IMG/VR virus record: IMGVR_UViG_2802429219_000011
Location: 1-18,574 of that record
Length of the DNA: 18,574 nucleotides
DNA from: a virus
Taxonomy: Duplodnaviria > Heunggongvirae > Uroviricota > Caudoviricetes
Direction: 5' to 3' (one strand)
A model generated the notes under the pieces. It ran no database searches. It saw nothing but the letters and a program-made list of their open reading frames with translations, and had not been told where the DNA came from. Every line of letters starts with the position of its first letter. The stretch's first letter is position 1. Below are positions 3,568-18,574 of this stretch, in pieces. The translations under genes were made by a program, and so were the position numbers.

Positions 3568-3579
3568 CAGTAACCTCTT

Positions 3580-4635: not shown

Positions 4636-4636
4636 G

Positions 4637-4909: not shown

Positions 4910-5014
4910 CTGTTTTCTCTGCTGGCGCAGCAGGTGCCAGTTGTTCAGGCTGGCATGTGAATTGTAAACCAGAACACAGGAATAACACAAAGCCCACATC
5001 GGCGGGCTTGATTA

Positions 5015-5443
5015 TTAAGCTGAGTCCGGCGAATACCAGGGGAAATAAATATCGCTTAACGACGTGTGCTTAAGAACAGAGTCCACCGCCAATTTTAACG
5101 TCAACGACATGAAATTCTCAAAATACCATGAATTTTTCACAAAGAATTTTTCATCGATCAACTCTCCATTCATGATATCAAAGTCCGTAATCAGCTCCAT
5201 CTTTAGCTCAAAAGAGGGTTCTTCATCCCCGGCACCATCTCTATCGGGATACCCTTTTATCGATGGCGAAAATCCAATCCGGAACCAACAAGTACCATCA
5301 TCATCGCGCCCCGAAGAAAATTTAACTTCCTCGATCGAGACCTTAAAAAACCCTCCATCATCACTAGTGTTATCCTTGAAACTACTGGAAACAATATCGA
5401 AACCAGCATACTTAATATTTTGTAACATCAGTGACGCATCCAT
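5015..5443 (-). CDS. Acidic hypothetical protein (orf142), third gene of the hicAB block
   Basis: ATG at 5443 (AGAGG 11 nt upstream), or ATG at 5428-5426 overlapping the hicB stop (TGATG). Asp/Glu-rich with no motif I recognise. Lies in a visibly AT-rich stretch. An antisense ORF (5064-5489 +) also exists, so strand assignment rests on operon context. Confidence 0.45.
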   Translation of the reverse strand: MDASLMLQNIKYAGFDIVSSSFKDNTSDDGGFFKVSIEEVKFSSGRDDDGTCWFRIGFSPSIKGYPDRDGAGDEEPSFELKMELITDFDIMNGELIDEKFFVKNSWYFENFMSLTLKLAVDSVLKHTSLSDIYFPWYSPDSA

Positions 5444-5904
5444 CGCTCACCAGCCTCTTTCTTTTTTGTTCTTGCTGAAGGGGAAATGACATAACCAAAA
5501 GAGAATGCTTTTTCCCAAACGAATGTATCTGTCGTTTCTTCGCTTTCCGAATGAGAATGAACTTCTTTTTTGTCAGCAATCTTTTCTTCGATAGCTTTAC
5601 GCACATAATCATTAAGCGTCGTCTTATCCGCCATTGCAGCCAAAAACGCTTTCTTATGAAGATCGCGACCAATTCTGATGTTAAAAGTACCACTCATTGG
5701 TTTATCAGGAGATTTCCCTAACTGCTTGCATGTGTCGAGATAATCTGTAACAGCTTCTTCAAAAGCCGCCCTTAACCCATCCAGTGTTTCCGCTTCGTAG
5801 GTTACAACATCGTTTACGCACTGAATTTTCCCATGAAGTATGTTATCTTCAAGTGAAACCTCAATGCTGCCAAAATAACCTTTATAACTCAGCACATTAC
5901 TCAT
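5428..5904 (-). CDS. hicB: HicB-family antitoxin (HicB N-domain plus RHH-like segment) with an unusual ~45-aa C-terminal extension
   Basis: ATG at 5904-5902 lies inside the last codons of hicA. Product begins MSNVLSYKGYFGSIEVS ... YEAETLDGLRAAFEEAVTDYLDTC ... KPMSGTFNIRIGRDLHKKA, the canonical HicB pattern (YKGY-GS ... P-KP-SG-F-R----LH-K). The ORF is also open from an upstream ATG at 5919. Confidence 0.75.
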   Translation of the reverse strand: MSNVLSYKGYFGSIEVSLEDNILHGKIQCVNDVVTYEAETLDGLRAAFEEAVTDYLDTCKQLGKSPDKPMSGTFNIRIGRDLHKKAFLAAMADKTTLNDYVRKAIEEKIADKKEVHSHSESEETTDTFVWEKAFSFGYVISPSARTKKKEAGERWMRH

Positions 5905-6145
5905 AACTATCAATCTCATCCAAAAGATTTTTCACTTCTTTAAGCACATATCCTTTAACAATATTGCCAGGATGTGGGCAATGAAAAGCCACAAGCCTTC
6001 CATTAGCATTGGTAAACTTCCTTCTTGAGCCTGAACCGGTAAGCATTTCGAAACCATAATGCCCAAGCAACGTCACGAGTTCATCCCATGTAAAATCCTT
6101 TGGAAGCTGATTCAGACGCCACCTCAACTTCTCTTTTTTGCTCAT
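5897..6145 (-). CDS. hicA: HicA-family mRNA interferase toxin
   Basis: ATG at 6145-6143. Product contains GFEMLTGSGSRRKFTNANGRLVAFHCPHPGNIVKGYVLKEVKNLL, matching the HicA/YcfA-like core (G-x-GS-x-R-x-F ... HxPHPG ... LL). Confidence 0.75.
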   Translation of the reverse strand: MSKKEKLRWRLNQLPKDFTWDELVTLLGHYGFEMLTGSGSRRKFTNANGRLVAFHCPHPGNIVKGYVLKEVKNLLDEIDSYE

Positions 6146-6171
6146 TTAAAGTATATCCCTTCCCCCACCAA

Positions 6172-6190
6172 TAGCAACTAACAATCAGTT
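6172..6190. promoter_or_regulatory. Palindrome upstream of hicA, candidate HicB operator
   Basis: GCAACT (6172-6177), 7-nt spacer, AGTTGC (6185-6190), about 30-45 nt upstream of the hicA start; RHH antitoxins usually bind such palindromes. Confidence 0.3.
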
Positions 6191-6373
6191 GCAAGCTCAT
6201 CGCAATAAAGAAGCATAAGAACCCTGTACCTAATTCATAACAACAGAAAACACATGCGAGCATGAAAATGTTACAATAATATTAAAGCCACTTGCTAGTA
6301 AGGTTAAGTGTGGGTGCGTTGAGGATGCCTGACACATCAGGGGTGGCGAGGGATTTCTCCCCCGCCGGGTCTC

Positions 6374-6529
6374 TTACTCCTCAGGTTCGTAAGCTGTGAA
6401 GACAGCGACCTCCGTCTGGCCGGTTCGGATTCGTACCTCGCAGAGGTCTTTCCTCGTTACCAGTGCCGTCACTATGACGGTTAAACAGATGACGATCAGG
6501 GCGATTAACATCGCCTTTTGCTGCTTCAT
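6374..6529 (-). CDS. hokD: Hok-family type I toxin (HokD/RelF-like)
   Basis: ATG at 6529-6527. Product MKQQKAMLIALIVICLTVIVTALVTRKDLCEVRIRTGQTEVAVFTAYEPEE: single TM helix plus the conserved Hok C-terminus (CE-R ... EVA-F-AYE). Matches my recollection of HokD. Confidence 0.85.
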   Translation of the reverse strand: MKQQKAMLIALIVICLTVIVTALVTRKDLCEVRIRTGQTEVAVFTAYEPEE

Positions 6530-6739
6530 AGCCTGCTTCTCCTTGCCTTTCGGCACGTAAGAGGCTAACCTACGTGTGCAAGTCATAGATATGGCCTCAG
6601 ATTAATGTTAAGCGTCTTGCAGGACGCGTAATGTTAACTGGGGCTTTTCTCTATCTGCCGTTGGTGTTCATGCCTGAGACAGATAGCCTCAAGCACCCGC
6701 AGCCATTCTACTTAACTATCCTTTTCCCGCAAATCGTTT

Positions 6740-6823
6740 TTATCCCCAGCGGCAAATCGAATACACCACCAGCGCCACCGCCAGTGCAATTCCTACCGTG
6801 GTGAATGCCTCAGGCCAGGTCAT
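6740..6823 (-). CDS. Candidate 27-aa hydrophobic peptide upstream of the hok leader
   Basis: ATG at 6823-6821 with a GGAGG Shine-Dalgarno 7 nt upstream. Product MTWPEAFTTVGIALAVALVVYSICRWG is a single predicted TM segment. Too short for the ORF track. Confidence 0.25.
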   Translation of the reverse strand: MTWPEAFTTVGIALAVALVVYSICRWG

Positions 6824-6910
6824 TGATTCACCTCCTGCGGTGGTTCCGGTAGCGGCATCCAGTGAGTTGAGCTCTCTACTTCGATGCCGTCTTTGTCCAC
6901 AAAAGCCATC

Positions 6911-7348
6911 TTATTCCCGCCACGAATGGGGCAAAAACACCTTATCCCAGGAACCGGGGAATACATTCCCGAGATCATCGCGAAGAATCACATCGCAGTA
7001 TTCCGCAGGAACTGCATCACTACAGCTTATCCAACCATCTGGAGCTACCGGCGCTGGTTGGGCTGTATAAAGCGGTGTTATATCTGCCCGAAGACCACAC
7101 GTCTCATACAATCGCACATACTGTTCAACTTCTGCTTTGTCAGAATACGTAACCGTAAACGTATCAAACTCATTGTCAATTCGAGTGAAAGTCACCTTCC
7201 ATGCCACCGGCTCTGCTTCCAGCGATGCCAGTGCAATTTTGAATAACTCACCCTCTACCTGTGCCATCCCTGAATTTGGGTGGCATTTCGCAATCGCTAT
7301 TTTTAATTTAGCTTCTTCGATTAATTGTTCTTTGGTTAATTCAGTCAT
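6911..7348 (-). CDS. Lambdoid early protein with a C-terminal DUF551-like segment
   Basis: ATG at 7348-7346 with AAGGA upstream. C-terminal PDGWISCSDAVPAEYCDVIL resembles the DUF551 W-I-S ... LP signature seen in many prophage proteins. Confidence 0.5.
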   Translation of the reverse strand: MTELTKEQLIEEAKLKIAIAKCHPNSGMAQVEGELFKIALASLEAEPVAWKVTFTRIDNEFDTFTVTYSDKAEVEQYVRLYETCGLRADITPLYTAQPAPVAPDGWISCSDAVPAEYCDVILRDDLGNVFPGSWDKVFLPHSWRE

Positions 7349-7349
7349 T

Positions 7350-7568
7350 TCAGTTTTCCTTATATGGATTAATTTTATTGTGTAGTGTGTTGAACGACGC
7401 CCATACCACGTCGTTATACAATTCAATAACTGGCTCAATTATTTTGCCGATTCCCCATACCAGAATTAACGGGGATATCGGTATCATCAACACGATAAAC
7501 AGAATGAGAAACAGGAATTCTGTTGCTCTGCTCTTTCGCGGATAATTTTTCCTGAATAGTGTAGTCAT
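7350..7568 (-). CDS. Small membrane protein (72 aa)
   Basis: ATG at 7568-7566 with GGAG upstream. Hydrophobic core FLFLILFIVLMIPISPLILVWGIG. Its stop lies 1 nt from the next start. Confidence 0.45.
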   Translation of the reverse strand: MTTLFRKNYPRKSRATEFLFLILFIVLMIPISPLILVWGIGKIIEPVIELYNDVVWASFNTLHNKINPYKEN

Positions 7569-7569
7569 A

Positions 7570-7767
7570 TCACTCCCATTTAATTTGCTTAGAACCGTGA
7601 TTTCTCCAGCGGTTTTGTGCCGCACTTCTACGTCGCCTGACACTGTAAAAATGCGTTGGTAACCACCTGGCAAGGCCAGAAGGCGCATAACGAACAACAA
7701 GTCGATTTGAGATGCGGATAAGCTGCCCGGGCTTTGCAGTAAGCAGTTTTGCTTTACGGTTTTTCAT
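7570..7767 (-). CDS. Small basic hypothetical protein (65 aa)
   Basis: ATG at 7767-7765 with AGGAG 9 nt upstream. Arg/Lys-rich. Start overlaps the stop of the upstream 54-aa ORF (ATGA). Confidence 0.45.
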   Translation of the reverse strand: MKNRKAKLLTAKPGQLIRISNRLVVRYAPSGLARWLPTHFYSVRRRRSAAQNRWRNHGSKQIKWE

Positions 7768-7928
7768 CGCTTTGATCTCCTGCGTTTCTTTGCTGCACGT
7801 CGTGCCGCTGCAATACCGGTATGGCGCTTTGGTGCCGGGATAATATTGTCAGCCATCATGACATGTGGAATAACTGTTAATGACGACGCCCAAAACCGCA
7901 CCAGATACGGCAATAAACAATTTTCCAT
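7764..7928 (-). CDS. Candidate 54-aa protein with a strongly basic C-terminus
   Basis: ATG at 7928-7926 with GAGGTG 9 nt upstream. Product MENCLLPYLVRFWASSLTVIPHVMMADNIIPAPKRHTGIAAARRAAKKRRRSKR. Stop overlaps the next start. Below the ORF-track cutoff. Confidence 0.3.
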   Translation of the reverse strand: MENCLLPYLVRFWASSLTVIPHVMMADNIIPAPKRHTGIAAARRAAKKRRRSKR

Positions 7929-8096
7929 TCGCATTTCTCACCTCAACTGACCTGAATATCAGTAATTGTTTGTTGCAACCATTCTTTAGTTAATTCTGCC
8001 ATTTTTATTACCGCCCTTTCGGGCGGCCTCCTGATGTTCTGAGGGTGCAGGAATCCCTCCGGTTAAGGATTAAATTTTTAACAGTGCTAAATTTAA

Positions 8097-8453
8097 TTAT
8101 TCAGTTCTTGATTTTGTCGCCCTGCGTATCCGCACTTTCGCGTTACGCTCAATCTGAATTAGCTTTTCTATATTTTTCCGCCGTTCCTGTTCCTCCTGGC
8201 GCAATAACCTTACATCATCTGCCAGCCTGGTTTCTCTTTTAGCCACAGAGAGCATCCAGTCAAATGGCTCCACAACTGCACCGCAGATTTTACAGCGGAC
8301 CTGACGCTCTTTTTCGTCAACCCGGACAGAGGCGTGATGGCAATATGGTCTTTCCGATGGCTCATAAAGAAAATTAACTTGATTACGTGGGTCATCCTCT
8401 TTTACCGGAAATAAAACGATATTGCTTAACTCATCTTCTGGTTTTATTTCCAT
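8097..8453 (-). CDS. Hypothetical nin-region protein with a Cys/His cluster and a charged coiled-coil-like tail
   Basis: ATG at 8453-8451 with strong SD AAGGAGAGGAG. CHH ... CKIC spacing suggests a small zinc ribbon; the C-terminus is E/R/K-rich. Confidence 0.55.
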   Translation of the reverse strand: MEIKPEDELSNIVLFPVKEDDPRNQVNFLYEPSERPYCHHASVRVDEKERQVRCKICGAVVEPFDWMLSVAKRETRLADDVRLLRQEEQERRKNIEKLIQIERNAKVRIRRATKSRTE

Positions 8454-8510
8454 GCTCCTCTCCTTTGATGCGAATGCCAGCGGTAATTGAAACCTGATAG
8501 CTAATTTCAC

Positions 8511-8939
8511 TCACAGTACCGCCTCCTGAAAATTACCCTGATAGAAAGCCAGTACACGCTGCATAGCTTCGCTCTTCCGGCACTCGCGACAGATTATGTT
8601 CAGATGTCTGTCGTAGCGGCGTATTTCTCCGTCTGGTAACTTTCGAATCAGTGTCTGGTCAGTTGTTTTCTCCGGTGTCTTACGCCATTCACGATACGCC
8701 TGCTCTGATGCAAAAACACCGTATTCCCCGGACATGTATAAATCACCACAAGCCAGTACATCCACAAGGCAGCGTCGGACCGAATGCCAGCCAGCTCCCG
8801 TCGCTCTCTCCAGTTGCGACATCGTCATGCGTTCATTTTTGCGTACCAACCCGATAATTCGTGCCTTCAGCTCTTCCCGCTGTTCGGGTGTAAAAACTTT
8901 TGCCACAAGCCCTCCTGAAAAATCACCTTCACAATTCAT
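8511..8939 (-). CDS. ren: Ren-like protein
   Basis: Start ATG overlaps the P-like stop (ATGA), as for lambda P/ren. C-terminus ICRECRKSEAMQRVLAFY parallels lambda Ren FKECRQSAAMKRVLAVY as I recall it. Confidence 0.55.
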   Translation of the reverse strand: MNCEGDFSGGLVAKVFTPEQREELKARIIGLVRKNERMTMSQLERATGAGWHSVRRCLVDVLACGDLYMSGEYGVFASEQAYREWRKTPEKTTDQTLIRKLPDGEIRRYDRHLNIICRECRKSEAMQRVLAFYQGNFQEAVL

Positions 8940-9601
8940 ACAAAACCAGCTGCCTTCCGGCGTTCATACTCCCGTTTCAGCAACTCAATTGGTGTTGGCC
9001 CCGACGGGCGTTTGGGTGCCGCCAGTTGTCGCCGGACTGGCGGAACGCTCAGGCCGTTACTAACATGCTTTGCCCATTTCGTCAGTTGCCGTTCTGCAAG
9101 CCGTTTTAACTCCCCTTCGGTCATCTGCCGCTCAATCCCCTTTGAACGCATCTCGAGACAAATGTGATACAGCACAGGCTGAGGCCACGGATATTTATCG
9201 CTTCCGTCGTATCGCCAGGACTCATTGCGCCAGCGGCGGTACTCCTCCATCACAGCATCCACCGTCAGACCAAATGGATTTGCCCCACTCTCCAAAATCA
9301 GCGCCACAAACTCAGCCAGGTCCGGAGGCCATGTTTCACCCGCCCGGCAGCGATCCATGCACTGGCGGCAGACCTGCCGGATTTGCTGCTCAGTCATCGC
9401 GCCAATCTGTGCAATCCAGAGCTTCGAAGGTGCGGCCCCGTTCTTCTGGGTCCAGCGGTTCGAATAAACCTCCCCCATGAGTTCCCACAACTTCCACGCC
9501 GTTTCCGTCGCGGATAAATCCGTTTTCACGTTCCCACTGCTCACGTGCTGCCCGAATTTCCTGAACTGCCCGTGATGCGGTGCCACCTGGCGTTGCTGCA
9601 T
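8936..9601 (-). CDS. Lambda P-like replication protein (helicase loader)
   Basis: ATG at 9601-9599 with GGGGG upstream; 221 aa. The block WPPDLAEFVAL ... YPWPQPVLYHICLEM ... MTEGELKRLAERQL parallels lambda P (FLPSPGQFVAW ... YPWKSNAHYWLV ... LTDAELRRKAADEL). Its first ~70 codons overlap the O-like frame. Confidence 0.7.
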   Translation of the reverse strand: MQQRQVAPHHGQFRKFGQHVSSGNVKTDLSATETAWKLWELMGEVYSNRWTQKNGAAPSKLWIAQIGAMTEQQIRQVCRQCMDRCRAGETWPPDLAEFVALILESGANPFGLTVDAVMEEYRRWRNESWRYDGSDKYPWPQPVLYHICLEMRSKGIERQMTEGELKRLAERQLTKWAKHVSNGLSVPPVRRQLAAPKRPSGPTPIELLKREYERRKAAGFV

Positions 9602-10430
9602 GGTTTACCCCCTTGCTGACTGGTTTAACCTGCGCCCTGACGTGATTTACGTGACGGGCGAATTTCTGCTCCCACTGAATCTGCGTAAATACTTTCCCCT
9701 CCGCTGCCCAGTAGTCCCGGAAGGCGGCAAGTTCAGCAGGTGTAAATTCTGTCTCCGGCAAAGCCATCCCCCACAACGCAGCCCGTCGTCGAAAATCCCG
9801 TGACGGATACCAGCTATCGGTCATCGGAAATTTTCCGATGGGTTCGCTCAGGCCATCCAGGAATACAGGGGGTGCTGCCTGTAACGACAAAACTTCCTGC
9901 TCACTGGTCGGAGCACTCTCGCGTGCGTTATGTGTGGGGGTTAGATCTTTGGGTTCCTTTGGGTTCCGTGATCCGTTTTTGGGTGTCTTTGATGGAAAAT
10001 TTGGGTGTCTTTGGTTATTTTCCATGCAGTTAAGAGTTCCGTTTTTGGGTCTGTTTTGTGCTGAAACATAACCATTTTCGGTACTGTTTTTATTAACAGC
10101 ACCAATTTTACCCACCTTTAAAGACTCCCGTTTTTGGGTGTATTCAGGCTCGGCAACACTTTCTTCTACACCGATAAGTCGGTACACCACAATTTGCTTT
10201 GTTCTGCCTTTTCTCTCACCGGTATCAACAATTAACCCAATCTCCATCAGGTGTCGTAAGCTGTCCTGCACAGTCTTTTTGTTCAGTTCCGTTACTTCTG
10301 CCAGGGCAGATACAGACGGGTATGCACACAAATCGGCACCGCACATATCAGCAAGCCAGGTCAATACTGACTTACTGGATGAACTGCCGGTTTTCACCTT
10401 TTTAGCCCATCGTAGTGCATCGATACTCAT
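9390..10430 (-). CDS. Phage replication initiator (O-like): N-terminal winged-HTH domain and DnaT-like C-terminal region
   Basis: The ORF track starts at a TTG (10505); I prefer the ATG at 10430-10428 (MSIDALRWAKKV...) preceded by GGGG. The N-terminus matches the phage replication-protein HTH pattern (LTWLADMCGADL ... PSVSALAEVTELNKKTVQDSLRHL). Contains the iteron array. Confidence 0.65.
   Translation of the reverse strand: MSIDALRWAKKVKTGSSSSKSVLTWLADMCGADLCAYPSVSALAEVTELNKKTVQDSLRHLMEIGLIVDTGERKGRTKQIVVYRLIGVEESVAEPEYTQKRESLKVGKIGAVNKNSTENGYVSAQNRPKNGTLNCMENNQRHPNFPSKTPKNGSRNPKEPKDLTPTHNARESAPTSEQEVLSLQAAPPVFLDGLSEPIGKFPMTDSWYPSRDFRRRAALWGMALPETEFTPAELAAFRDYWAAEGKVFTQIQWEQKFARHVNHVRAQVKPVSKGVNHAATPGGTASRAVQEIRAAREQWERENGFIRDGNGVEVVGTHGGGLFEPLDPEERGRTFEALDCTDWRDD
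9948..10146. repeat. Iteron array (putative origin of replication) inside the O-like gene
   Basis: TTTGGGT core at 9948, 9958, 9978, 10000, 10044 and 10133. Longer copies CCGTTTTTGGGTGTCTTTG (9973-9991), AAATTTGGGTGTCTTTGG (9997-10014), TCCGTTTTTGGGTCTGTTTTG (10038-10058), CCCGTTTTTGGGTGTATTC (10128-10146). A moderately AT-rich stretch lies at 10061-10120. Confidence 0.6.
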
Positions 10431-10953
10431 ACGAACCCCAGACAGACATTTGTTTATCTGCAAAATAATGTTGGTATTGCTGACGATACGCATGCTTGAA
10501 AGCAATAGCTTTTTCTATAAGCTCGTCAGTCTCACGTTCCACAACAGCGGGATCCGCAAAAAGCAGCCCGGACTCCACCACATCGCCATATTCTTTGTTT
10601 AACCCGGCGATCATGTACGTAATGCTTTTTCCGTCAGTAATTTCACAATACAACCTGAAATCACTGATCCGGATAGCCTCCATAATTGCCGGAATCAACG
10701 CCGTGAATTTTTCACGCTTATCCCTGGTGTCAATAGCTTTCCAGCGTTCGAATATCTTCACTCTGTTAACGCCAAGCGCCCGTTGATCAACCGCGCCATC
10801 ATCAAATGTGACACGTTGAACATCGATGTTCGGGCGTTCTTTCAGAGTCCAGAATGCCTCTGTGATTAATATCGTCGCCTGCTCCTGCGTCATTCCTGGT
10901 CGACATACCCAGGCATCCAGAGCCTCGCGAGCCTGCTCAGGAGTGAATATCAT
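10402..10953 (-). CDS. Hypothetical early protein between cro-like and O-like genes (cII/YdaT position)
   Basis: ATG at 10953-10951 overlaps the last 17 nt of the cro-like gene. 183 aa, no motif recognised with confidence. Confidence 0.5.
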   Translation of the reverse strand: MIFTPEQAREALDAWVCRPGMTQEQATILITEAFWTLKERPNIDVQRVTFDDGAVDQRALGVNRVKIFERWKAIDTRDKREKFTALIPAIMEAIRISDFRLYCEITDGKSITYMIAGLNKEYGDVVESGLLFADPAVVERETDELIEKAIAFKHAYRQQYQHYFADKQMSVWGSYEYRCTTMG

Positions 10954-11209
10954 TGTTCACCGCCAGTGATTCATTCGACATACACTTATTTCCACAAGGT
11001 AGTCCATCTGTTGGGTTGGGATAAATGTCAGGGCGAATTTCATGCGGGGTAACTTCCCACTTCATTAACTGGCATAACGGAATTACCTGCTTTGGGGGAA
11101 CGCCAAAGCTAAACCATTGCCAAACGGTCTGTTGAGCGACCCCCATATAGCGACCTATTTCAGCTTGAGTGTATTTCTGCCTAATTTTTTCGCGAGTGCT
11201 ATCTAGCAT
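10937..11209 (-). CDS. Cro-like HTH regulator (YdaS-type)
   Basis: ATG at 11209-11207 with strong SD AGAGGAGGG. HTH segment TQAEIGRYMGVAQQTVWQW. Divergent from the repressor gene. Confidence 0.7.
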   Translation of the reverse strand: MLDSTREKIRQKYTQAEIGRYMGVAQQTVWQWFSFGVPPKQVIPLCQLMKWEVTPHEIRPDIYPNPTDGLPCGNKCMSNESLAVNNDIHS

Positions 11210-11244
11210 TTTGCCCTCCTCTGAAAACTATAAACAAAGCCTAC

Positions 11245-11279
11245 AATAAAAAACTGTACGCAATCAACAGTTTTTTATT
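11245..11279. promoter_or_regulatory. Operator: perfect 13-bp inverted repeat with 9-bp spacer in the divergent cro/repressor control region
   Basis: AATAAAAAACTGT (11245-11257), spacer ACGCAATCA, ACAGTTTTTTATT (11267-11279). Confidence 0.6.
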
Positions 11280-11317
11280 GTGATGCTTTTAACAGTATTT
11301 ACCTGTAAAATTGAATA

Positions 11318-11719
11318 ATGATGAACGCCCTAGAAGTATCTATGTACAGAATCAGCAAGCTTCTTCAGGAAACTGGATGGAGCCAGGCTGAACTTGCCCG
11401 TAGAATTGGTGTGACACAACAAACAGTTCAACAATGGGTCAGCGGTAAGGCTACGCCTAAAGCCTCAAGTTTGGATAAACTGGTTGAGGTTACAGGGCAT
11501 CCATTGCATTGGTTTTTATTGCCTCCTGATGAGGGGGAGCAAATTTTCACCCCTGACACAATGAAAATTGGTCCTCGCCAACGCGAACTGCTCCAAGCTT
11601 TTAGTGCGTTTCCAGAGGAAGACCAAGAAAAAATGCTTCAAGAAATCAAAGACAAGAAAAAATCAATGGAAGAAACTATTGCCCGATGGTTGGCGGCACA
11701 AAAAAGCCGCCGGGCGTGA
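11318..11719 (+). CDS. Prophage repressor, XRE-family HTH (DicA/PaaR2-like)
   Basis: HTH segment SQAELARRIGVTQQTVQQWVSG. C-terminal region (SAFPEEDQEKMLQEIKDK) parallels DicA (NALPESEQDTQLAEMRAR) as I recall it. Divergent from cro-like and directly upstream of the antitoxin/toxin pair. Confidence 0.7.
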   Translation: MMNALEVSMYRISKLLQETGWSQAELARRIGVTQQTVQQWVSGKATPKASSLDKLVEVTGHPLHWFLLPPDEGEQIFTPDTMKIGPRQRELLQAFSAFPEEDQEKMLQEIKDKKKSMEETIARWLAAQKSRRA

Positions 11720-11746
11720 CCACTGTACAAGAAGAGGAGTTATGCC

Positions 11747-11938
11747 ATGAGTACAGCCCTTTCTCCGATAGTTTCAGAATTCGAAACTACCGAACAAGAA
11801 AACAGTTACAACGAATGGTTGCGCGCTAAAGTGACGTTAAGCCTTGCAGACCCTCGCCCCGCAATTCCACATGACGAGGTAATGGCTGAAATGGAAAATC
11901 TTATTGCTCAAATTGCTGCAACTAACAGGAGCGAGTAA
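11747..11938 (+). CDS. Small antitoxin (PaaA2-like, 63 aa)
   Basis: Stop overlaps the ParE start (TAATG). Size, position between a DicA-like regulator and ParE, and acidic composition fit the paaR2-paaA2-parE2 arrangement reported in E. coli O157 prophages. Confidence 0.55.
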   Translation: MSTALSPIVSEFETTEQENSYNEWLRAKVTLSLADPRPAIPHDEVMAEMENLIAQIAATNRSE

Positions 11939-12225
11939 TGTTACCCATTTTATGGCTACCATCTGCTCGCGATGATTTGCGTCAGGTCGTAACCTATATT
12001 GCTAAGGAAAACATTCCTGCAGCACGCAGACTAAAAATACGTATTGAAACGTCTGTTTTAACCCTCTCTGAGCACCCATATCTATATCCGCTAAGTGATC
12101 GAGTATCCGGTTTGCGGGAACTTGTGGTTCACCCTAATTATATCGTGTTGTACCGAGTAGCAACTTCAAGCATTGAAATTGCGAATATTGTGCATGCCCG
12201 TCGACAATTTCCCTTCTCTATCTGA
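11938..12225 (+). CDS. parE: ParE/RelE-superfamily toxin
   Basis: Product MLPILWLPSARDDLRQVVTYIAKEN ... LSEHPYLYP ... GLRELVVHPNYIVLYRVATSSIEIANIVHARRQFP fits the ParE pattern (W-P-A-DL---YI ... G-REL-V--NY---YR ... I-I--I-H-R). Confidence 0.8.
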   Translation: MLPILWLPSARDDLRQVVTYIAKENIPAARRLKIRIETSVLTLSEHPYLYPLSDRVSGLRELVVHPNYIVLYRVATSSIEIANIVHARRQFPFSI

Positions 12226-12241
12226 GCCGAACAATTTCCAT

Positions 12242-12266
12242 ACTCCCTCATTCGAGGGAGTTTTTT
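12242..12266 (+). terminator. Intrinsic terminator after parE
   Basis: ACTCCCTC(12242-12249)-ATTC-GAGGGAGT(12254-12261) hairpin followed by T6 (12261-12266). Confidence 0.55.
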
Positions 12267-12278
12267 GTCTAAGACAAC

Positions 12279-12320
12279 AATTAAAAACTGTTGACACAAA
12301 ACAGTTTTTAATTGTAGATT
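12279..12320 (+). promoter_or_regulatory. Second operator copy overlapping a strong candidate promoter for the dicB-type operon
   Basis: AATTAAAAACTGT (12279-12291), 9-bp spacer, ACAGTTTTTAATT (12301-12313). Consensus -35 TTGACA (12291-12296) sits inside the operator, with TAGATT -10 at 12315-12320 (18-bp spacer). Confidence 0.55.
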
Positions 12321-12496
12321 ATTTTTACCAACCCACCCCGCCCCACAGAATGCAGGGCAATACTTCGAGTTACCAGGCAGTGGTCAGGGGTTAAGTAGCC
12401 AGCCCGAGGCGTAAGAACATGACGGCAGGGTTCAACTTTAACTATGCAGCAGGTTTTTGTTCCGCTACCCCGGCGTTAAGGGGAAATGAGGTCAAC

Positions 12497-12652
12497 ATGG
12501 ATACTATCGATCTTGGCAACAACGAATCTCTGGTGTACGGCGTGTTTCCCAACCAGGACGGCACGTTCACCGCGATGACGTATACCAAAAGCAAAATGTT
12601 TAAAACCGAAAATGGTGCCCGTCGCTGGCTGGAAAGAAACTCAGGTGAGTGA
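12497..12652 (+). CDS. ydfA: YdfA-like small protein (51 aa)
   Basis: ATG at 12497 with GAGG 5 nt upstream. Product MDTIDLGNNESLVYGVFPNQDGTFTAMTYTKSK... matches my recollection of Qin YdfA. The ORF-track start (12419) is an upstream in-frame extension. Confidence 0.65.
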   Translation: MDTIDLGNNESLVYGVFPNQDGTFTAMTYTKSKMFKTENGARRWLERNSGE

Positions 12653-12653
12653 T

Positions 12654-12782
12654 ATGGATTTCGACACAATCATGGAAAAGGCTTACGAAGAATACTTCGA
12701 AGGCCTTGCCGAAGGCGAAGAAGCTCTCAGCTTCAGTGAGTTTAAACAGGCGCTTTACAGTTCGGCAAAATCTATCGACTAA
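12654..12782 (+). CDS. ydfB: YdfB-like small acidic protein (42 aa)
   Basis: ATG at 12654, 1 nt after the ydfA-like stop. Product MDFDTIMEKAYEEYFEGLAEGEEALSFSEFKQALYSSAKSID. Below the ORF-track cutoff. Confidence 0.55.
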   Translation: MDFDTIMEKAYEEYFEGLAEGEEALSFSEFKQALYSSAKSID

Positions 12783-12793
12783 CGGGGTTATAG

Positions 12794-13432
12794 ATGGAAT
12801 TTAAAGAGTTACCAAAAGAAATCAAGGTGATTGCAGCGCATGCACTTTGTCAACGTCTGTCCGAAGTTGAATTAGAATCTGCAACGAAGAAAGACATTGA
12901 TAATATGGCTCGTAATGTGCGCGATGCGTTTACCGGATTGTATTTCTGTTCGTCTGTAAATAAACACGACTCAGAGAGTGTGGCAAAGAAAATTGCAGAA
13001 ACGACAGCGCAAAACATCAATACGAAACCAATGAAAGAAGAAATTGATCAGTTTGCTCATGATGCTGGTTTAAAAAACAAGAAAGAAAAATCGCCATACG
13101 CGGGAAATATGTTTGTTTATGACAATCTCATCAGAATCCGTGGCAAGATTCCGGCTGAATACCTGACAAAAGTTCATCAGGCATTGCTTAAGAACCTGGA
13201 AACAGAAGTATTTGATGGCAACGCCAACGGATCCTTCAGAGTGTCAACTCTTGCGAAAGAATGGGATACAGAGAATAGCTGGAATGTTGCGACGTGGATG
13301 TTCAGTAACAGAGCTTCAGCCCTGGAAGCAGCAACATGTATTTGTGACCTGTTAAAAGCAGACCACAAATACAACCTTGATGTATACAGCTATATTTACG
13401 CTGAACACTATCCGCTCTGGATTGACTGGTAA
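12794..13432 (+). CDS. Hypothetical 212-aa protein, AT-rich cargo gene in the ydfC position
   Basis: ATG at 12794 preceded by GGGGTTATAG. No motif recognised. Visibly more AT-rich than its neighbours. Stop abuts the stop of the convergent 69-aa gene. Confidence 0.6.
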   Translation: MEFKELPKEIKVIAAHALCQRLSEVELESATKKDIDNMARNVRDAFTGLYFCSSVNKHDSESVAKKIAETTAQNINTKPMKEEIDQFAHDAGLKNKKEKSPYAGNMFVYDNLIRIRGKIPAEYLTKVHQALLKNLETEVFDGNANGSFRVSTLAKEWDTENSWNVATWMFSNRASALEAATCICDLLKADHKYNLDVYSYIYAEHYPLWIDW

Positions 13433-13642
13433 TTACAGGGCGGTGCCAGCAGGGCCACGACGACCAACACCACGATTGTAATCAATGATGCCATTATAAA
13501 GCACATTGTTTAATTTATCGTCAAATGCTGATTTCGTGAGCCTTAACTCTGAATGGTTTTTTAATAACCCTGATTGCCTGAGTTGATTAACCAGACATTC
13601 AATCTGTTTTTCAATAAGCGGATGTATTGGTCTGTTTGGCAT
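13433..13642 (-). CDS. Hypothetical 69-aa protein, convergent with the 212-aa gene
   Basis: ATG at 13642-13640 with GGAGG 5-6 nt upstream (the ORF-track start at 13654 lies inside the SD). Product MPNRPIHPLIEKQIECLVNQLRQSGLLKNHSELRL...; no family recognised. Confidence 0.45.
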   Translation of the reverse strand: MPNRPIHPLIEKQIECLVNQLRQSGLLKNHSELRLTKSAFDDKLNNVLYNGIIDYNRGVGRRGPAGTAL

Positions 13643-13964
13643 TTTATCCTCCATTGAGGTTCTGGGTTAAAAATGGAGACCAACACGCTGCCACGTGTAG
13701 TCGTGCGCCGGACACGGATAAGAATCCGGCACTGACAGTTTACTGAAAGGATATATCCCTGAAAAGTCAGGGCATAACGCGAAAGCGCACGGCGAAGTTC
13801 TTCTGTCTGTACGGTGTCGTTAAATTTAATTCGACCGTGCGCTTCCGGTTGTGGCAATCCGCGAAATGGCGCGGCGGTAAGTATGGCGGGGTTATCCTTA
13901 CCCCATTAGTGGCACCGGGTTGTCAGGTTGACCATACGCCTGAGTGACAACCCCGCCACAACAA

Positions 13965-14026
13965 CCCATGTTGATTACCTTTTGGCGGGTATCCGTTTTG
14001 TTTTCCCCGTGATACCCGCCCTTTTT
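13965..14026 (+). ncRNA. DicF-like small RNA (divergent homolog), 3' end defined by an intrinsic terminator
   Basis: Perfect 10-bp stem GGCGGGTATC (13984-13993)/GATACCCGCC (14011-14020) with T5 at 14022-14026, in the conserved ydfABC-dicF-dicB operon position. TTTGGCGG-TATC ... CCGTGA ... CCGCCCTTTTT resembles my recollection of DicF. The 5' end is a guess. Confidence 0.4.
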
Positions 14027-14209
14027 AAAGTGAATTTTGTGATGCGGTGAATGCGGCTCAGCGCACGCGGAACAGTTAAAAAGGCCAGTTGACTTCCGTA
14101 TTGGTTCTTATGGGTGGGTTCTCTGTATCCGGCGTTAATTATTAACTGGTTAACGTCACCTGGAGGCACCAGGCACCGCATCACAAAATTCATTGTTGAG
14201 GACGCGATA

Positions 14210-14392
14210 ATGGAAACGTTATTACCAAACGTCAATACGTCTGAAGGTTGTTTTGAAATTGGTGTCAGAATCAGTAACCCTGTATTTACTGAAGATGCCA
14301 TTAATAAGAGAAAACACGAACGGGAGCTATTAAATCAAATATGCATTGTTTCAATGCTGGCCCGTTTACGCCTGATGCAAAAAGGACGCTGA
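14210..14392 (+). CDS. dicB: DicB cell-division inhibitor
   Basis: ATG at 14210 with GAGGA 8 nt upstream. Product METLLPNVNTSEGCFEIGVRISNPVFTEDAINKRKHERELLNQICIVSMLARLRLMQKGR, 60 aa, nearly identical to my recollection of DicB. Confidence 0.85.
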   Translation: METLLPNVNTSEGCFEIGVRISNPVFTEDAINKRKHERELLNQICIVSMLARLRLMQKGR

Positions 14393-14394
14393 CA

Positions 14395-14598
14395 ATGAAT
14401 ACAGCATTTGCACTCGTTCTGACAGTTTTTCTTAATACAGGCGAACCAGTCGATCTTGTTATTGGTATACATGACTCAATGAAAGAATGCATGGCTGCCG
14501 CAGCGGAACAGAAAATTCCCGGCAACTGTTATCCGGTTGATAAAGTTATTCGCATGGACAATAACGAAATCCCGGCAGGACTTAAAGCAGCACCGTAA
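14395..14598 (+). CDS. ydfD: YdfD-like small protein (N-terminal hydrophobic segment; lysis-associated in Qin)
   Basis: ATG at 14395 directly after the dicB stop, AAGGA upstream. Product MNTAFALVLTVFLNTGEPVDL ... KIPGNCYPVDKVI, consistent with Qin YdfD as I recall it. Confidence 0.65.
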   Translation: MNTAFALVLTVFLNTGEPVDLVIGIHDSMKECMAAAAEQKIPGNCYPVDKVIRMDNNEIPAGLKAAP

Positions 14599-14678
14599 TT
14601 AATATCCGGTTTCATTTTTAGATGCCAGCAATGGCAGGGATTTGTTCACCCTTAAATCTGTAATGAGGTTAAAACAAA

Positions 14679-17153
14679 ATGAGTAAAGTCTTTATTTGCG
14701 CCGCCATTCCGGACGAACAGGCAATAAAGGAAGAAGGTGCAGTTGCTGTAGCCACTGCCATTGAAGCCGGTGACGAACGCCGCGCCCGTGCCAAATTTAC
14801 CTGGCAATTCCTGGAGCAATATCCGGCTGCTCAGGACTGCGCTTATAAATTTCTTGTCTGCGAGGATAAACCCGGCATGCCCCGCCCTGCTATCGACTCC
14901 TGGGATACCGAATATATGCAGGAAAACCGCTGGGATGAGGAATCCGCTTCCTTTATTCCGGTCGAACCAGAATCCGATCCGATGAACGTCAATTTTGACA
15001 AGCTGTCCCTTGAAGTACAGAACGCGGTCCTGGTTAAGTTCGGTACATGTGAAAACATCACCGTTGATATGGTGATTAGCGCACAGGAGTTACTGCAGGA
15101 AGACGTGGCGACATTCGACGGGCATATCGTTGAAGCACTGATGAAAACACCAGAAATTAACGCTATGTATCCGGAACGCAAACTGTTCGCTATCGGATGG
15201 GGTAAACACAAATGTAAGCCGGGTGCCAAATGGCCCGAAATTCAGGCTGAATTACGTAACTGGAAAAAACGGCAGGACGCGGAGCGCAAAGAGACTGGAA
15301 AATACACGTCTGTTGTTGATCTCGCCCGCACCAGAGTCAACCGACAGCACACTGAAAACTCAGCAGAAAAAATCCCCCCTGTCACTGCAGTTATTCGTCG
15401 CGAATACAAGCAGACATGGAAAACATTGGATGATGAACTGGCCTACGCTCTGTGGCCTGGTGACATTGATGCCGGAAACATTGACGGCAGCATCCATCGC
15501 TGGGCAAAAAATGAAGTTATCGAGAGCGATCGCGAAGACTGGAAGCGTATTTCCGCATCAATGCGCAAACAGCCTGATGCCATTCGCTATGACCGTCAGA
15601 CTATTTTTGGCCTTGTCCGTGAGCGTCCGATCGACATTCACAAGGATCCCGTGGCACTGAACAAATACATCACTGAATACCTGGCGACAAAGGGCGTGTT
15701 TGAGGATGAAGAAACAGACCAGAACACTGCTGATATTCTCCAGCCGTCAGCAGCACAAACTGATGCAGTGGAAACTGAAGTATCTGATACCAAAAAAAAT
15801 GAAAGCGCGCTGGAAACTGAACCATCTGTAGAGCGTGAGGGGCCGTTCTACTTCCTCTTCACCGATAAGGATGGCGAAAAATATGGTCGTGCAAACAAAC
15901 TTTCTGGTCTGAATAAGGCGCTGGCTGCCGGGGCTACTGAAATCACGAAAGAAGAATATTTTGCCCGCAAAAACGGCACATACTCAGGTTCACAACAAAA
16001 TACTGGTGCATCTGACACGACCGCACAACCAGAGCCGGTAAAAGTTACCGCTGACGAAGTAAACAAAATTATGCAGGCAGTCAGCCAGCCTGACGCCAAT
16101 CAGTTGCTTGCTGCCTCTCGCGGAGAATTTGTTGCAGGGATTAGCGACCCGAATGATCCGAAATGGGTGAAGGGGATTGAAACCCGCGATTCTGTGTACC
16201 AGAACCAGCAAGAAACGGAACAGAACGACCAGAAAGCGGAACAAAACAGCCAAAATGCGTTACAAAACGAGCCAGAAACGAAACAATCCGAACCAGTAGC
16301 GCAACAAGAACCAGAAAAAACCTGCACCGCCTGCGGTCAGAGCGGTGGCGGCAACTGCCCTGATTGTGGCGCGGTGATGGGCAACGCAACATATCAGGAA
16401 ACATTCGATGAAGAGAATCAGGTTGAAGTTCAGGAAAATGATCCGGAGGAAATGGAAGGCGCTGAACATCCACACAAGGGGGACACTAGCGGCGCTCAGG
16501 ACCACGCCAGCGATAGTGAAACTGGTGAGGCGGCAGATCCCTTAATTAATGTGAATGGTCATCATAAAAGCACATCCACCAGCAGAGTGTGGTACCACCT
16601 GATGATCGACCTTGAAACGATGGGTAAAAAAAGTAATGCCCCCATCGTGGTTATTGGTGCTGTGTTCTTCGATCCGCAGACCGGGGAAATCGGGCCAACA
16701 TTTTATATCGTTATCAGCCTGGTTGACGCTATGGACACGGGTGCTGTACCTGATGGTTCCACCATCGAATGGTGGCTTGCTCAGTCCAGCGAAGCCAGAT
16801 CTGCAATTTTAGTTGATCAGGTAAAACTGGTTGACGCTCTTATTCAATTTCGGGAATTCATCAATGAGTACTCGAATGAAAAATTCGTTCAGGTATGGGG
16901 CAATGGTGCAACTTTCGACAACACTATTTTACGAACCTCGTACGAACGCCTGAACATCCCCTGCCCGTGGCGTTACTACAACGATCGCGATGTACGTACA
17001 ATCGTTGAACTGGGAAAAACTATCGACTTCGATGCCAGAACAGTTATTCCATTTGAAGGCGTGCGCCACCATGCGCTGGATGATGCCCGTCACCAGGCGA
17101 AATACGTTTCAGCAATCTGGCAAAAACTGATCCCGAATCAGGCTGATTTTTAA
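14679..17153 (+). CDS. Large early protein (824 aa): N-terminal YdfE-like region, Q/E-rich low-complexity linker, C4 zinc-ribbon motif, C-terminal DEDDh-type 3'-5' exonuclease domain
   Basis: C-terminal motifs MIDLETMG (Exo I, D-x-E), WGNGATFDNTIL (Exo II) and HHALDDARHQ (Exo III, H ... D). CTACGQSGGGNCPDCG gives C-x2-C-x8-C-x2-C. GAGG 11 nt upstream of the ATG. Confidence 0.8.
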   Translation: MSKVFICAAIPDEQAIKEEGAVAVATAIEAGDERRARAKFTWQFLEQYPAAQDCAYKFLVCEDKPGMPRPAIDSWDTEYMQENRWDEESASFIPVEPESDPMNVNFDKLSLEVQNAVLVKFGTCENITVDMVISAQELLQEDVATFDGHIVEALMKTPEINAMYPERKLFAIGWGKHKCKPGAKWPEIQAELRNWKKRQDAERKETGKYTSVVDLARTRVNRQHTENSAEKIPPVTAVIRREYKQTWKTLDDELAYALWPGDIDAGNIDGSIHRWAKNEVIESDREDWKRISASMRKQPDAIRYDRQTIFGLVRERPIDIHKDPVALNKYITEYLATKGVFEDEETDQNTADILQPSAAQTDAVETEVSDTKKNESALETEPSVEREGPFYFLFTDKDGEKYGRANKLSGLNKALAAGATEITKEEYFARKNGTYSGSQQNTGASDTTAQPEPVKVTADEVNKIMQAVSQPDANQLLAASRGEFVAGISDPNDPKWVKGIETRDSVYQNQQETEQNDQKAEQNSQNALQNEPETKQSEPVAQQEPEKTCTACGQSGGGNCPDCGAVMGNATYQETFDEENQVEVQENDPEEMEGAEHPHKGDTSGAQDHASDSETGEAADPLINVNGHHKSTSTSRVWYHLMIDLETMGKKSNAPIVVIGAVFFDPQTGEIGPTFYIVISLVDAMDTGAVPDGSTIEWWLAQSSEARSAILVDQVKLVDALIQFREFINEYSNEKFVQVWGNGATFDNTILRTSYERLNIPCPWRYYNDRDVRTIVELGKTIDFDARTVIPFEGVRHHALDDARHQAKYVSAIWQKLIPNQADF

Positions 17154-17217
17154 TGTTCAACCCCGGTCGTCGCCCACCAGCTATAGTGGCGGCGACCATG
17201 ATTAGCGAACGACGCTC

Positions 17218-17466
17218 ATGGCAAGACTTATTCTGCTCACTGAGTGGGCAAAAGAGGAATTCAGTGAACCGGTCCCTACTCCGGGTACGTTAAGTAAATA
17301 CGCTAAAGCCGGAATGATATTTCCTCTCCCCAAAAAAGTAGGAAGGCACTGGCGAGTGGATCCACGCGCTCGCTTTGTCGGAATGGTAAACAAGCCTGAG
17401 GTGATCGCCACAGATCACCCTGCTTTGAAGAGGATACTGGAAGATGGCGCGCCCGCGAAAATATAA
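17218..17466 (+). CDS. xis: Excisionase (lambda Xis-like)
   Basis: Product MARLILLTEWAKEEF ... AGMIFPLPKKVGRHWRV parallels lambda Xis (LTLQEWNARQ ... CRIFPPPVKDGREYLF). Overlaps the int start by 23 nt. Confidence 0.7.
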   Translation: MARLILLTEWAKEEFSEPVPTPGTLSKYAKAGMIFPLPKKVGRHWRVDPRARFVGMVNKPEVIATDHPALKRILEDGAPAKI

Positions 17467-18574
17467 AACCGATGTTCCGGGTTTATCTCCGTATTTTGAC
17501 AAAAGAAATAACAAAGTTTACTGGCGTTACAGGCATCCCATCACAGGTAAAAATCATGGACTCGGCAGTATTGACCAGAAACTGGCGGAAACCATTGCAG
17601 CAGAAGCGAACAGCCGTCTTGCCAGACAACAAATGGAGCAAATGCTCAGTCTGCAGGAGAAAATTATTAGTGATACCGGCGGCGCATCAACCGTTTCCAT
17701 TTTTCTGAATAATTACAGAAAAATTCAACAGGAAAGATATGAGAACGGAGAAATCAAGCTCAGCACGCTGAAACAAAAAGCGGCTCCTCTCAGGGTGTTT
17801 GATGAACGTTTTGGAGCCAGGCCGCTAGATGCCATAACCGTAAAAGATGTGGTATCGGTGCTGGAAGAATACAAGGCAAAGGGACATAACAGAATGGGAC
17901 AAATTTTCAGGAAGGTATTGATCGATGTTTTCCGGGAGGCTCAACAAACGGGTGATGTCCCGCCAGGCTTTAACCCGGCTGAATCGGCAAAAAAACCGCA
18001 AGTGCGGATATCAAGACAGCGACTGACTTTTGATGAGTGGATGATGATTTATAACGCAGCGGAAAAGGATGGTTACTTTTTACAGCGCGGCATGCTGCTG
18101 GCACTGATGACGGGCCAGCGTCTTTCGGATATTTGCAAAATGCAGTTTTCGGATATCCGGGATGGTTACCTTCATGTCGAACAGCAAAAAACAGGAGCCC
18201 GGATAGCCATTCCTCTGGCTCTGCGTTGCGACAAATTAAATCTGACCCTAGGTGACGTGGTGTCATCCTGTCGTGATTACATCCTTAGTCCGTGGTTATT
18301 GCACCATCATCACGCTAAGGGGATGGGTAAGCGCGGCGGGATGGTTAAACCAGCAACGTTAACAGTTGCATTTAAAAAAGCCCGGGATTCTGTGGATTAC
18401 AACTGGCGTGCTAATGGCACTCCACCCTCTTTCCATGAGCAAAGATCTTTATCAGAAAGATTGTTCAGAGAACAGGGAATTGATACCAAAATTTTGCTGG
18501 GTCATTCGAATCAAAAAATGACCGATATTTACAACGACGCACGCGGTAAGGAGTGGAAAAAACTGGTTATTTGA
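17444..18574 (+). CDS. int: Tyrosine recombinase, lambda-type integrase (complete; stop at the window edge)
   Basis: N-terminal arm-binding-like domain, core with R ... LLGHS ... TDIYNDARG placing the catalytic Tyr in the usual motif. 376 aa. Confidence 0.9.
   Translation: MARPRKYKTDVPGLSPYFDKRNNKVYWRYRHPITGKNHGLGSIDQKLAETIAAEANSRLARQQMEQMLSLQEKIISDTGGASTVSIFLNNYRKIQQERYENGEIKLSTLKQKAAPLRVFDERFGARPLDAITVKDVVSVLEEYKAKGHNRMGQIFRKVLIDVFREAQQTGDVPPGFNPAESAKKPQVRISRQRLTFDEWMMIYNAAEKDGYFLQRGMLLALMTGQRLSDICKMQFSDIRDGYLHVEQQKTGARIAIPLALRCDKLNLTLGDVVSSCRDYILSPWLLHHHHAKGMGKRGGMVKPATLTVAFKKARDSVDYNWRANGTPPSFHEQRSLSERLFREQGIDTKILLGHSNQKMTDIYNDARGKEWKKLVI

Follow-up and report, generated by a model that had tools for sequence, protein, structure and literature searches.

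What occupies the position between ydfB and dicB in the early operon of a lambdoid prophage, and what could it be doing there? The question is raised by a DNA stretch of 18,574 nucleotides (nt) from a virus of the Caudoviricetes (IMG/VR record IMGVR_UViG_2802429219_000011, positions 1 to 18,574), hereafter the window, which is the early region of such a prophage. Two open reading frames (ORFs) lie in that position: gene A (212 amino acids, aa) on the strand of the operon, and gene B (69 aa) on the opposite strand, the two meeting tail to tail (Table 1). Operons of the dicBF type serve in cell-division control and in phage exclusion through DicB. As described below, the pair is a mobile accessory cassette of two genes that occurs in temperate prophages of Escherichia and Salmonella and is carried in a hypervariable slot of the early operon.

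Two adjoining genes under purifying selection

The stop codons of A (TAA, 13430–13432) and B (TTA on the plus strand, 13433–13435) are adjacent, with a gap of 0 nt. A program-made ORF list gave B as 73 aa from a more upstream ATG. The 69-aa start, with GGAGG 5 nt before its ATG, is the start found in RefSeq homologous loci, where A and B are both annotated as coding sequences under the name "hypothetical protein", O157:H7 EDL933, with proteins WP_000394548.1 and WP_001133037.1, being among them. The zero-nt gap was found in 50 of 50 loci in which both ORFs have their full length (212 and 69 aa). An earlier note on this DNA had placed both ORFs correctly, its end at 13660 taking in the Shine-Dalgarno (SD) region of B, and had pointed to the strong GGAGG and to a tail-to-tail junction with no room for a terminator. 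Both observations hold: the SD lies at 13648–13652, a consensus scan calls no terminator either between the stops or just beyond them, and the 100 nt spanning the junction fold no better than shuffled sequence (z = -0.45 and -0.59). The description of A as AT-rich stands in part, since its G+C content is lower than that of the window (40.8% versus 47.5%) but only modestly so; B has 40.5% and the leader-to-dicF region 51.3%.

A and B are both coding and under purifying selection. Among 30 distinct haplotypes, the ratio of nonsynonymous to synonymous substitution rates (dN/dS) is 0.32 for A, 0.17 for its C-terminal domain (C-domain) and 0.45 for its N-terminal part, whereas the shifted frames give 0.93–1.5. 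The 69-aa ORF, for which the earlier note took a lack of conservation as counting against its reading, is conserved: homologs were found, and dN/dS of B is 0.23–0.25. Alternatively, one or both ORFs may not be genes, the 69-aa frame being a chance ORF antisense to the 3′ untranslated region of the operon. The small size of B and the absence of a functional annotation for A or B anywhere would be in keeping with this. Nevertheless, both ORFs are taken as genes because the purifying selection is frame-specific, which effectively refutes the alternative; moreover, the B protein is kept at 41–56% identity in Salmonella, its SD is strong and invariant, and the families in PHROG match at full length. 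A matches PHROG 2151 over residues 1–212 of 212 (E 1.4e-119) and B matches PHROG 4274 over residues 1–69 of 69 (E 5.9e-43), both families being of unknown function. A chance origin is highly improbable.

Co-inheritance of A and B

B occurs in 597 of 5,426 complete E. coli genomes (about 11%, 744 places) and the C-terminal half of A in 600 of them (751 places). The two are found together in 597 of the 600 genomes having either, O157:H7 EDL933 included, and the pair is also present in other Shiga-toxin-producing strains. The remaining three genomes share one allele in which B is internally deleted and A is intact, and this allele stands in two different N-terminal backgrounds. Alleles with a single intact gene are known both ways, with B deleted beside an intact A and with A truncated beside an intact B, and they argue weakly against strict addiction. 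The proposal of the earlier note that this is accessory cargo, with two genes that belong together, agrees with the co-occurrence and with a pairing kept in distant Salmonella relatives. A genome-contig search with the A profile gave no confirmed locus.

Several broken alleles were observed alongside. The EDL933-type alleles of B (loci L003 and L044) have a run of seven A residues in codons 4–6, a run that the window allele lacks. Six IMG/VR loci (L036, L050, L062, L067, L081 and L119) carry A6 instead of A7, by which B is truncated to 17 aa. These A6 alleles may reflect slipped-strand variation or a homopolymer sequencing error, and because of the latter possibility the internal-deletion allele is used here for the loss of B. 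Two copies of the cassette are decayed. In E. coli RM13752 (L012), IS100 interrupts gene A and an internal stop breaks the 69-aa ORF. In ETEC1730 (L011) RefSeq marks A as missing its N-terminus, and the 69-aa gene is intact.

The conserved unit is the C-domain with B

Protein A is composed of an N-terminal module, a linker of low confidence in the AlphaFold2 (AF2) model, and the C-domain. The helices of the N-terminal module span residues 8–24 and 32–54 in the AF2 model. Within the A family alignment this module is mosaic, and PHROGs 1363, 9419, 6937 and 33007 give partial matches to residues 1–75. An exhaustive search of 1.84 billion representative proteins with the A profile yielded 58 matches, about 45 of which cover only the first 35–94 residues of A and have unrelated C-termini. 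The N-terminal module is common to many short proteins with otherwise unrelated C-termini.

The C-domain, on the other hand, is nearly invariant in the family alignment. AF2 predicts an alpha/beta fold in the order beta-beta-alpha-beta-beta-alpha-beta, with a predicted local distance difference test (pLDDT) of about 77–87 at residues 101–140 and 80–82 at residues 161–190. The same order is that of SUI1/eIF1, which recurred among weak matches and is an unconfirmed lead. B is basic (isoelectric point, pI, 9.7), with two helices predicted at low confidence and a C-terminal R..PAG..L tail whose columns are invariant across Escherichia and Salmonella, the two genera in which its homologs are found. 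The charges of the acidic C-domain (pI 5.3) and of B are complementary, which counts as weak evidence for the explanation favoured below. Both proteins are hydrophilic and lack a membrane segment, the Kyte-Doolittle maximum over a 19-residue window being 0.82 for A and 0.22 for B.

The earlier note recognised no motif in the 212-aa protein, and the database searches agree: neither A nor B has a significant match in Pfam, NCBIfam or PADLOC, and sequence-profile searches of the PDB found nothing better than E 0.1. The homologs of A (n = 142) are named solely "hypothetical" or "Ybl81".

Only two of the 58 matches, P0175 and P0186, are remote relatives of the C-domain (36% identity, E 4e-16). Both belong to Salmonella enterica prophages of another type, in which an integrase, a helix-turn-helix (HTH) repressor and Cox precede the gene. 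The Salmonella C-domain relatives (30–39% identity) sit downstream of Phage_Cox and their N-termini differ; that of P0175 holds an HTH_3 domain (26.2 bits), and some relatives are without an HTH. In 13 of the 13 Salmonella loci examined, the C-domain faces a convergent B homolog of 64–69 aa. The homologs in the Cox-type loci (L133–L142) are 41–56% identical to B (BLASTP E 3e-11 for one pair) and overlap the C-domain gene by 11–53 nt. In L143–L145 a stand-alone C-domain ORF (76% identical) abuts the B gene (81% identical) with the same zero-nt gap, and a tandem second cassette of the 64-aa class follows the first. No B homolog without a C-domain was seen in the loci examined. Since the pairing survives N-terminal swapping in Salmonella, the conserved unit is the C-domain of A together with B, with an interchangeable N-terminal part, and the pairing predates the fusion of the N-terminal module to the C-domain.

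These relatives bear on two other explanations. In the first, A and B are independent genes linked by geometry: B would be a moron that stands alone and A an early protein with no relation to it, and they would stay together for want of intergenic DNA where recombination could part them. A zero gap or an overlap is indeed found in every cassette class, mosaic boundaries in lambdoid phages tend toward gene borders, and alleles with one intact gene exist in both directions. However, both families remain paired at 30–56% identity in another prophage type in which the N-terminus is different, absent or HTH-bearing, B homologs came with a C-domain in all loci seen, and a C-domain lacks B in only 3 of 600 genomes. 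Mere linkage is in our judgement unlikely. In the second, which the HTH fusions suggest, the C-domain would be a B-binding receiver in control of its fusion partner (the MEFK module in E. coli and an HTH in Salmonella), and B a small co-regulator or anti-regulator. The pair would then tune the lysis-lysogeny decision or the early operon and would not act on the host or on other phages. Such a regulatory switch we regard as quite unlikely.

A structured leader common to a hypervariable slot

Upstream of B lies a leader of about 90 nt in which three hairpins are predicted. The last of them, H3, has an arm that doubles as the SD region. Its two arms do not vary among 40 unique leaders from E. coli and Salmonella and are paired in the minimum free energy (MFE) fold. 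H2 differs in sequence between lineages: the E. coli leaders have ACACG/CGUGU and those of Salmonella CCCRAC/GUYGGG, and locus L063 shows ACAUG/CAUGU, a double change. Its stem is predicted in 40 of the 40 unique leaders and is weak in two or three. The H1 stem is again invariant across the 40, and the sequence upstream of it changes with the context. For the leader of the window, the RNA of the B strand folds at -34.1 kcal/mol compared with -27.3 kcal/mol for its complement. Unrelated upstream contexts each offer an AT-rich, -10-like hexamer at about the same distance from H1, in line with a putative B promoter from which a transcript beginning at H1 would be made. In the enterohaemorrhagic E. 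coli (EHEC) RNA-seq and Ribo-seq supplements (PMC5331693), dicB and ydfA were absent and old locus tags could not be mapped, and no expression value was recovered.

The leader is not confined to B. Searching IMG/VR for the exact SD/leader motif returned at least 119 loci, and among the matches listed the same leader stands before at least ten unrelated minus-strand small ORFs (Table 1). The SD is found upstream of every small-ORF class at the slot, its columns being invariant in nine E. coli and Salmonella leaders. Each cassette class has its own C-terminal variant of the plus-strand protein, usually with a tail-to-tail overlap, for instance 12 nt for the 112/64-aa (plus/minus) class, 44 nt for 186/80 aa, 131 nt for 129/99 aa and 14 nt for 101/101 aa. 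In one class the plus-strand protein is the 52-aa N-terminal module alone, and three classes have no MEFK gene. The 94-aa ORF of L032 converges on an unrelated 51-aa ORF with an overlap of 4 nt. None of the alternative small ORFs has a meaningful PADLOC match. Altogether, at least 1,193 of the 5,426 complete E. coli genomes (at least 22%) carry the leader, as do phiP27 and phiSTEC1589-Stx1c, two Shiga toxin (Stx) phages; tandem copies are possible in Salmonella (L137, L143), with a separate cassette behind each. The same flanks thus carry at least ten alternative cassettes or, in K-12, none, a replacement and presence polymorphism. Compared with a moron, the pair shows this polymorphism and a modestly different base composition and lacks a terminator of its own.

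The slot is distinct from ydfC

The earlier note held that the two genes replace ydfC, which is contradicted by their coexistence. In strain E9 the order is ydfA-ydfB-ydfC-A-B-dicB; in three other records (H2, H3 and H14) ydfC stands beside two hypothetical genes under the same match, the listings of TUM1881 and TUM9812 showing this arrangement. A is not a long-form YdfC homolog, a candidate identity that was tried and dropped: BLASTP failed to align A with the 72-aa YdfC of strain E9 at E≤100. The YdfC encoded in the dicBF operon of K-12 Qin resembles the pair in being a small protein of unknown function encoded between ydfB and dicF, yet it has no detectable similarity to A, and its gene, itself optional, lies apart from the slot on the upstream side.

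In the Qin prophage of K-12 MG1655 (L132, about 2040–2120), some 20 nt of a degraded, MEFK-type start of gene A follow ydfC and run straight into the conserved DNA that precedes dicF; the cassette, the SD, H2 and H3 are all deleted. Because this scar of the A start lies downstream of ydfC, the slot is distinct from ydfC and has been deleted in K-12. A "long untranslated region" has been described between ydfC and dicF of K-12 (PMC5069750), and from the remnant A start it is therefore read here as the deletion scar of the slot.

A model of reciprocal expression

The dicBF operon is under repression by DicA and is turned on through the antirepressor Rem or, in a subpopulation, stochastically (PMC10448788). 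In lysogeny the operon that contains A is repressed. We tentatively favour, at somewhat less than even confidence, the explanation that B is the lysogeny cargo and the C-domain of A its neutralising partner, the two being reciprocally expressed. A would be read with the repressor-controlled early operon, and B in the opposite direction from its own putative promoter in the lysogen, behind the three-hairpin leader whose last hairpin lies over the SD. Since the stops touch without a terminator, transcription of each gene would run antisense into the other, and the cassette is therefore expected to act as a reciprocal switch. While the early operon is repressed in lysogeny, B would be made; once it is derepressed, A would be made and B shut down. 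B would be the cargo proper, a small effector of the lysogenic phase that would most probably serve in exclusion, in defence or in modulating the host, and the C-domain a cognate binder that neutralises or redirects B on the lytic switch and so provides self-immunity. B is taken as the primary cargo because a leader-driven small ORF is present in every class and the partner-specific domain is optional. Promoter activity, reciprocal expression, a physical interaction between A and B and the biological role are what we infer here.

A wider reading is that the pair belongs to an undescribed prophage class of reciprocal switches, in which an SD-occluding leader is the platform for unrelated lysogeny proteins, several of them with a convergent neutralising domain. 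This wider reading we hold to be doubtful.

Several results weigh against reciprocal expression with B as cargo. The promoter-like site of B is not called by the consensus scan. Judged by G-U asymmetry, the greater stability of H2 falls on the B strand for 26 leaders and on the opposite one for 13, giving no clear preference for the B strand. PADLOC-DB v2.0.0 returned zero families for A or B at E≤1. The AF2 models are mediocre (pLDDT 62.6 for A and 58.4 for B), that of B being too weak for a structure search, and searches of the PDB and BFVD gave no match, the fold searches being uninformative on function. The pair was also unmatched among 50,697 deposited phage genomes (INPHARED), which makes a role in active lytic growth no more than possible. 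Finally, the co-inheritance may follow trivially from the zero intergenic distance.

A further possibility turns the roles around. A would be a host-damaging early protein, through either its C-domain or its N-terminal module, and B an antidote protein made in lysogeny against leaky A, in a type II-like but convergent toxin-antitoxin catch. The neighbours in the operon are DicB, DicF and YdfD, and dicBF products are toxic, with an operon that fires stochastically (PMC5069750, PMC10448788). The two genes form a conserved, cognate pair, the weak predicted structure of B is as for a protein that folds on binding, and the one alternative ORF that scores as a GhoS antitoxin does so at the Pfam cutoff. 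A genuine PaaA2/ParE toxin-antitoxin lies just upstream, so the region does collect such cargo. Nevertheless, classes without an A-specific domain still have a leader-driven small ORF, and the small ORFs are therefore not generally antidotes to a partner. The B-deleted allele leaves A intact in two N-terminal backgrounds, there is no match to a toxin family, an antitoxin family or PADLOC, and a C-domain that occurs fused to an HTH or alone has the look of a regulatory or binding domain more than of a toxin. An antidote role for B is improbable in our estimate.

The earlier note had called convergent pairs of this kind typical of toxin/antitoxin-like or exclusion cargo. The toxin/antitoxin part of this characterisation is not supported as it stands, since the pair is convergent rather than a bicistron, has no toxin, antitoxin or defence match and no membrane segment, and exists as single-gene alleles; a role in exclusion or defence is possible. 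Two established types were tried as candidates and are not supported. A type II system would be a co-directional operon with a recognised toxin family or fold; all full-length loci are convergent and neither family nor fold was recognised. A type I system of the hok/sok kind would have a small hydrophobic membrane toxin, and both proteins are hydrophilic. As for the DNA-binding domain of type II antitoxins, B has no Pfam match, and its AF2 model shows two helices at pLDDT 58.

Comparison with known prophage systems

The lambdoid early-left region carries exclusion genes such as sieB with esc in lambda and P22, where the two are co-directional and nested, and rexAB. Like the proposed pair, these are prophage-borne, lie near or in a repressor-controlled early-left operon, have their own promoter in the lysogen and include a self-sparing cognate function. 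Unlike sieB/esc, the pair is convergent, shares no sequence or fold similarity with them, and has a function that is here only proposed. BstA, the subject of Owen et al. in 2021, is said to be a large single protein of prophage defence, with aba as a DNA element inside the bstA gene. BstA-aba resembles cargo B with its neutralising C-domain in that a prophage-made defence factor is accompanied by an element that neutralises it in the phage's own lytic cycle; the pair has neither homology to it nor a PADLOC match. The PaaA2/ParE locus of this window (11747–12225) is, like the pair, a prophage cargo of two genes for small cognate proteins, one of them predicted to be poorly structured alone, but it is a co-directional, overlapping bicistron of recognised Pfam families.

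EHEC prophages carry convergent genes for anti-small RNAs (anti-sRNAs) at the PR′ moron site (PMC4104026). Morons and anti-sRNA genes resemble the pair as cargo at a fixed site, opposed to a phage operon, with a constant scaffold, a variable part and many variants in EHEC. The slot differs from the PR′ morons in lying in an early dicBF-type operon and in having as its variable part a protein ORF behind a structured 5′ leader, with a cognate plus-strand partner in several classes. A literature search found no description of the pairing, the slot or the shared leader, with ybl81 and five RefSeq accessions unmatched, and papers on dicBF and on EHEC sRNAs do not mention A or B.

The operon and its other features

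In order, the window holds a cro-like gene on the minus strand, an HTH repressor-like gene with PaaA2/ParE, a terminator-like site and a promoter-like palindrome. It continues with ydfA (DUF1391), ydfB, A, B and about 570 nt of conserved non-coding DNA, followed by dicB, the DUF1482 gene, an exonuclease of 824 aa, xis and int. Pfam matches in the window (DUF1391, 95.5 bits; DicB, 127.5 bits; DUF1482, 81 bits) agree with the RefSeq homologous loci. The conserved flank order given in the earlier note is correct for ydfA, ydfB, DicB and DUF1482, but dicF was not detected by Rfam: DicF (RF00039) gave no match in the window at the gathering threshold or at E<1. At the dicF position lies a divergent DicF-like element without the canonical 5′ UUUCUGGUGAC region, which has a terminator hairpin of its own (MFE -22.7 kcal/mol, z -5.0). 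About 185–204 complete E. coli genomes contain this variant unannotated; possibly it is an sRNA whose range of targets differs.

The HTH/PaaA2/ParE locus lies between the repressor position and ydfA and is similar to paaR2-paaA2-parE2, a toxin-antitoxin system of three components in O157:H7; its HTH gene may also serve as the repressor of the prophage. The palindrome that follows the terminator-like hairpin holds the TTGACA of the promoter-like TTGACA-18-TAGATT and is, as far as sequence can tell, a candidate operator/promoter (dicBp-like) of the ydfA-...-dicB operon.

Table 1. Positions of gene A, gene B, their leader, and the further features observed (positions are those of the window unless a locus is named)
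Feature	Position	Strand	Description
Gene A	12794–13432	+	ORF of 212 aa; after ydfA/ydfB in the early dicBF-type operon; PHROG 2151
N-terminal module of A	12794–12958	+	aa 1–55 (MEFKxLP...FTGLY); two helices
C-domain of A	13085–13432	+	aa 98–212; about 115 aa, acidic, pI 5.3; family-specific
Gene B	13433–13642	-	ORF of 69 aa; PHROG 4274
SD region of B	13643–13654	-	GGAGG at 13648–13652; doubles as 3′ arm of hairpin H3
Leader	13643–13735	-	about 90 nt, three hairpins; loci L013–L131 and L133–L147
Hairpin H3	13649–13678	-	CUCCAU (13678–13673) pairs with AUGGAG (13654–13649) and masks most of the SD
Hairpin H2	13679–13702	-	stem sequence varies by lineage, pairing kept
Hairpin H1	13707–13730	-	GCCGGA...UCCGGC; at putative 5′ end of the B transcript
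Promoter-like site of B	13737–13765	-	putative; TTTTCA (13765–13760), 17-nt spacer, TAAACT (13742–13737)
69-aa family		-	leader-driven small ORF; 53 of 119 among the matches listed
64-aa family		-	leader-driven small ORF; 22 loci among the matches listed
99-aa, 61-aa and 59-aa families		-	leader-driven small ORFs
61/80-aa Zn-ribbon family; 63-aa Zn-ribbon		-	leader-driven small ORFs
75-aa and 101-aa ORFs		-	leader-driven small ORFs
94-aa ORF	L032, 3563–3999	-	position is that of the cassette; GhoS antitoxin family at the Pfam cutoff (21.2 vs 21 bits)
HTH/PaaA2/ParE locus	11318–12225	+	133-aa HTH protein, PaaA2 (Pfam 75.8 bits), ParE toxin (54.8 bits)
Terminator-like hairpin	12242–12261	+	first part of feature 12242–12320
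Palindrome	12277–12315		39 nt; overlaps the promoter-like site within feature 12242–12320
DicF-like element	13955–14028	+	divergent; at the dicF position
Conserved region	14033–14187	+	just upstream of dicB; sub-threshold Rfam STnc100, 33.5 bits (gathering 47)
hok/sok-type locus	6374–6698	-	Rfam sok, 109.5 bits
tRNA genes	2043–2196	-	two, phage-borne; Gly-TCC and Thr-TGT

Significance

The genes themselves are not new, because they are already in PHROG families of unknown function and are widespread in sequenced E. coli. If the model of reciprocal expression is wrong, A and B are still a real, conserved pair of hypothetical genes, which is not a variant of ydfC and cannot be recognised as a toxin-antitoxin either. 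If it is true, the dicBF-type operon would be an unrecognised hotspot that swaps lysogeny-phase small proteins behind a riboregulatory leader, and at least ten uncharacterised small-protein families would be opened to direct testing. A convergent, expression-exclusive layout would join the known designs of cognate pairs, and the "long untranslated region" of K-12 Qin would be explained as a deletion scar. Should the wider reading hold as well, prophages would possess a modular form of defence or host modulation with self-immunity, shuffled among those of Escherichia and Salmonella, Stx phages included.

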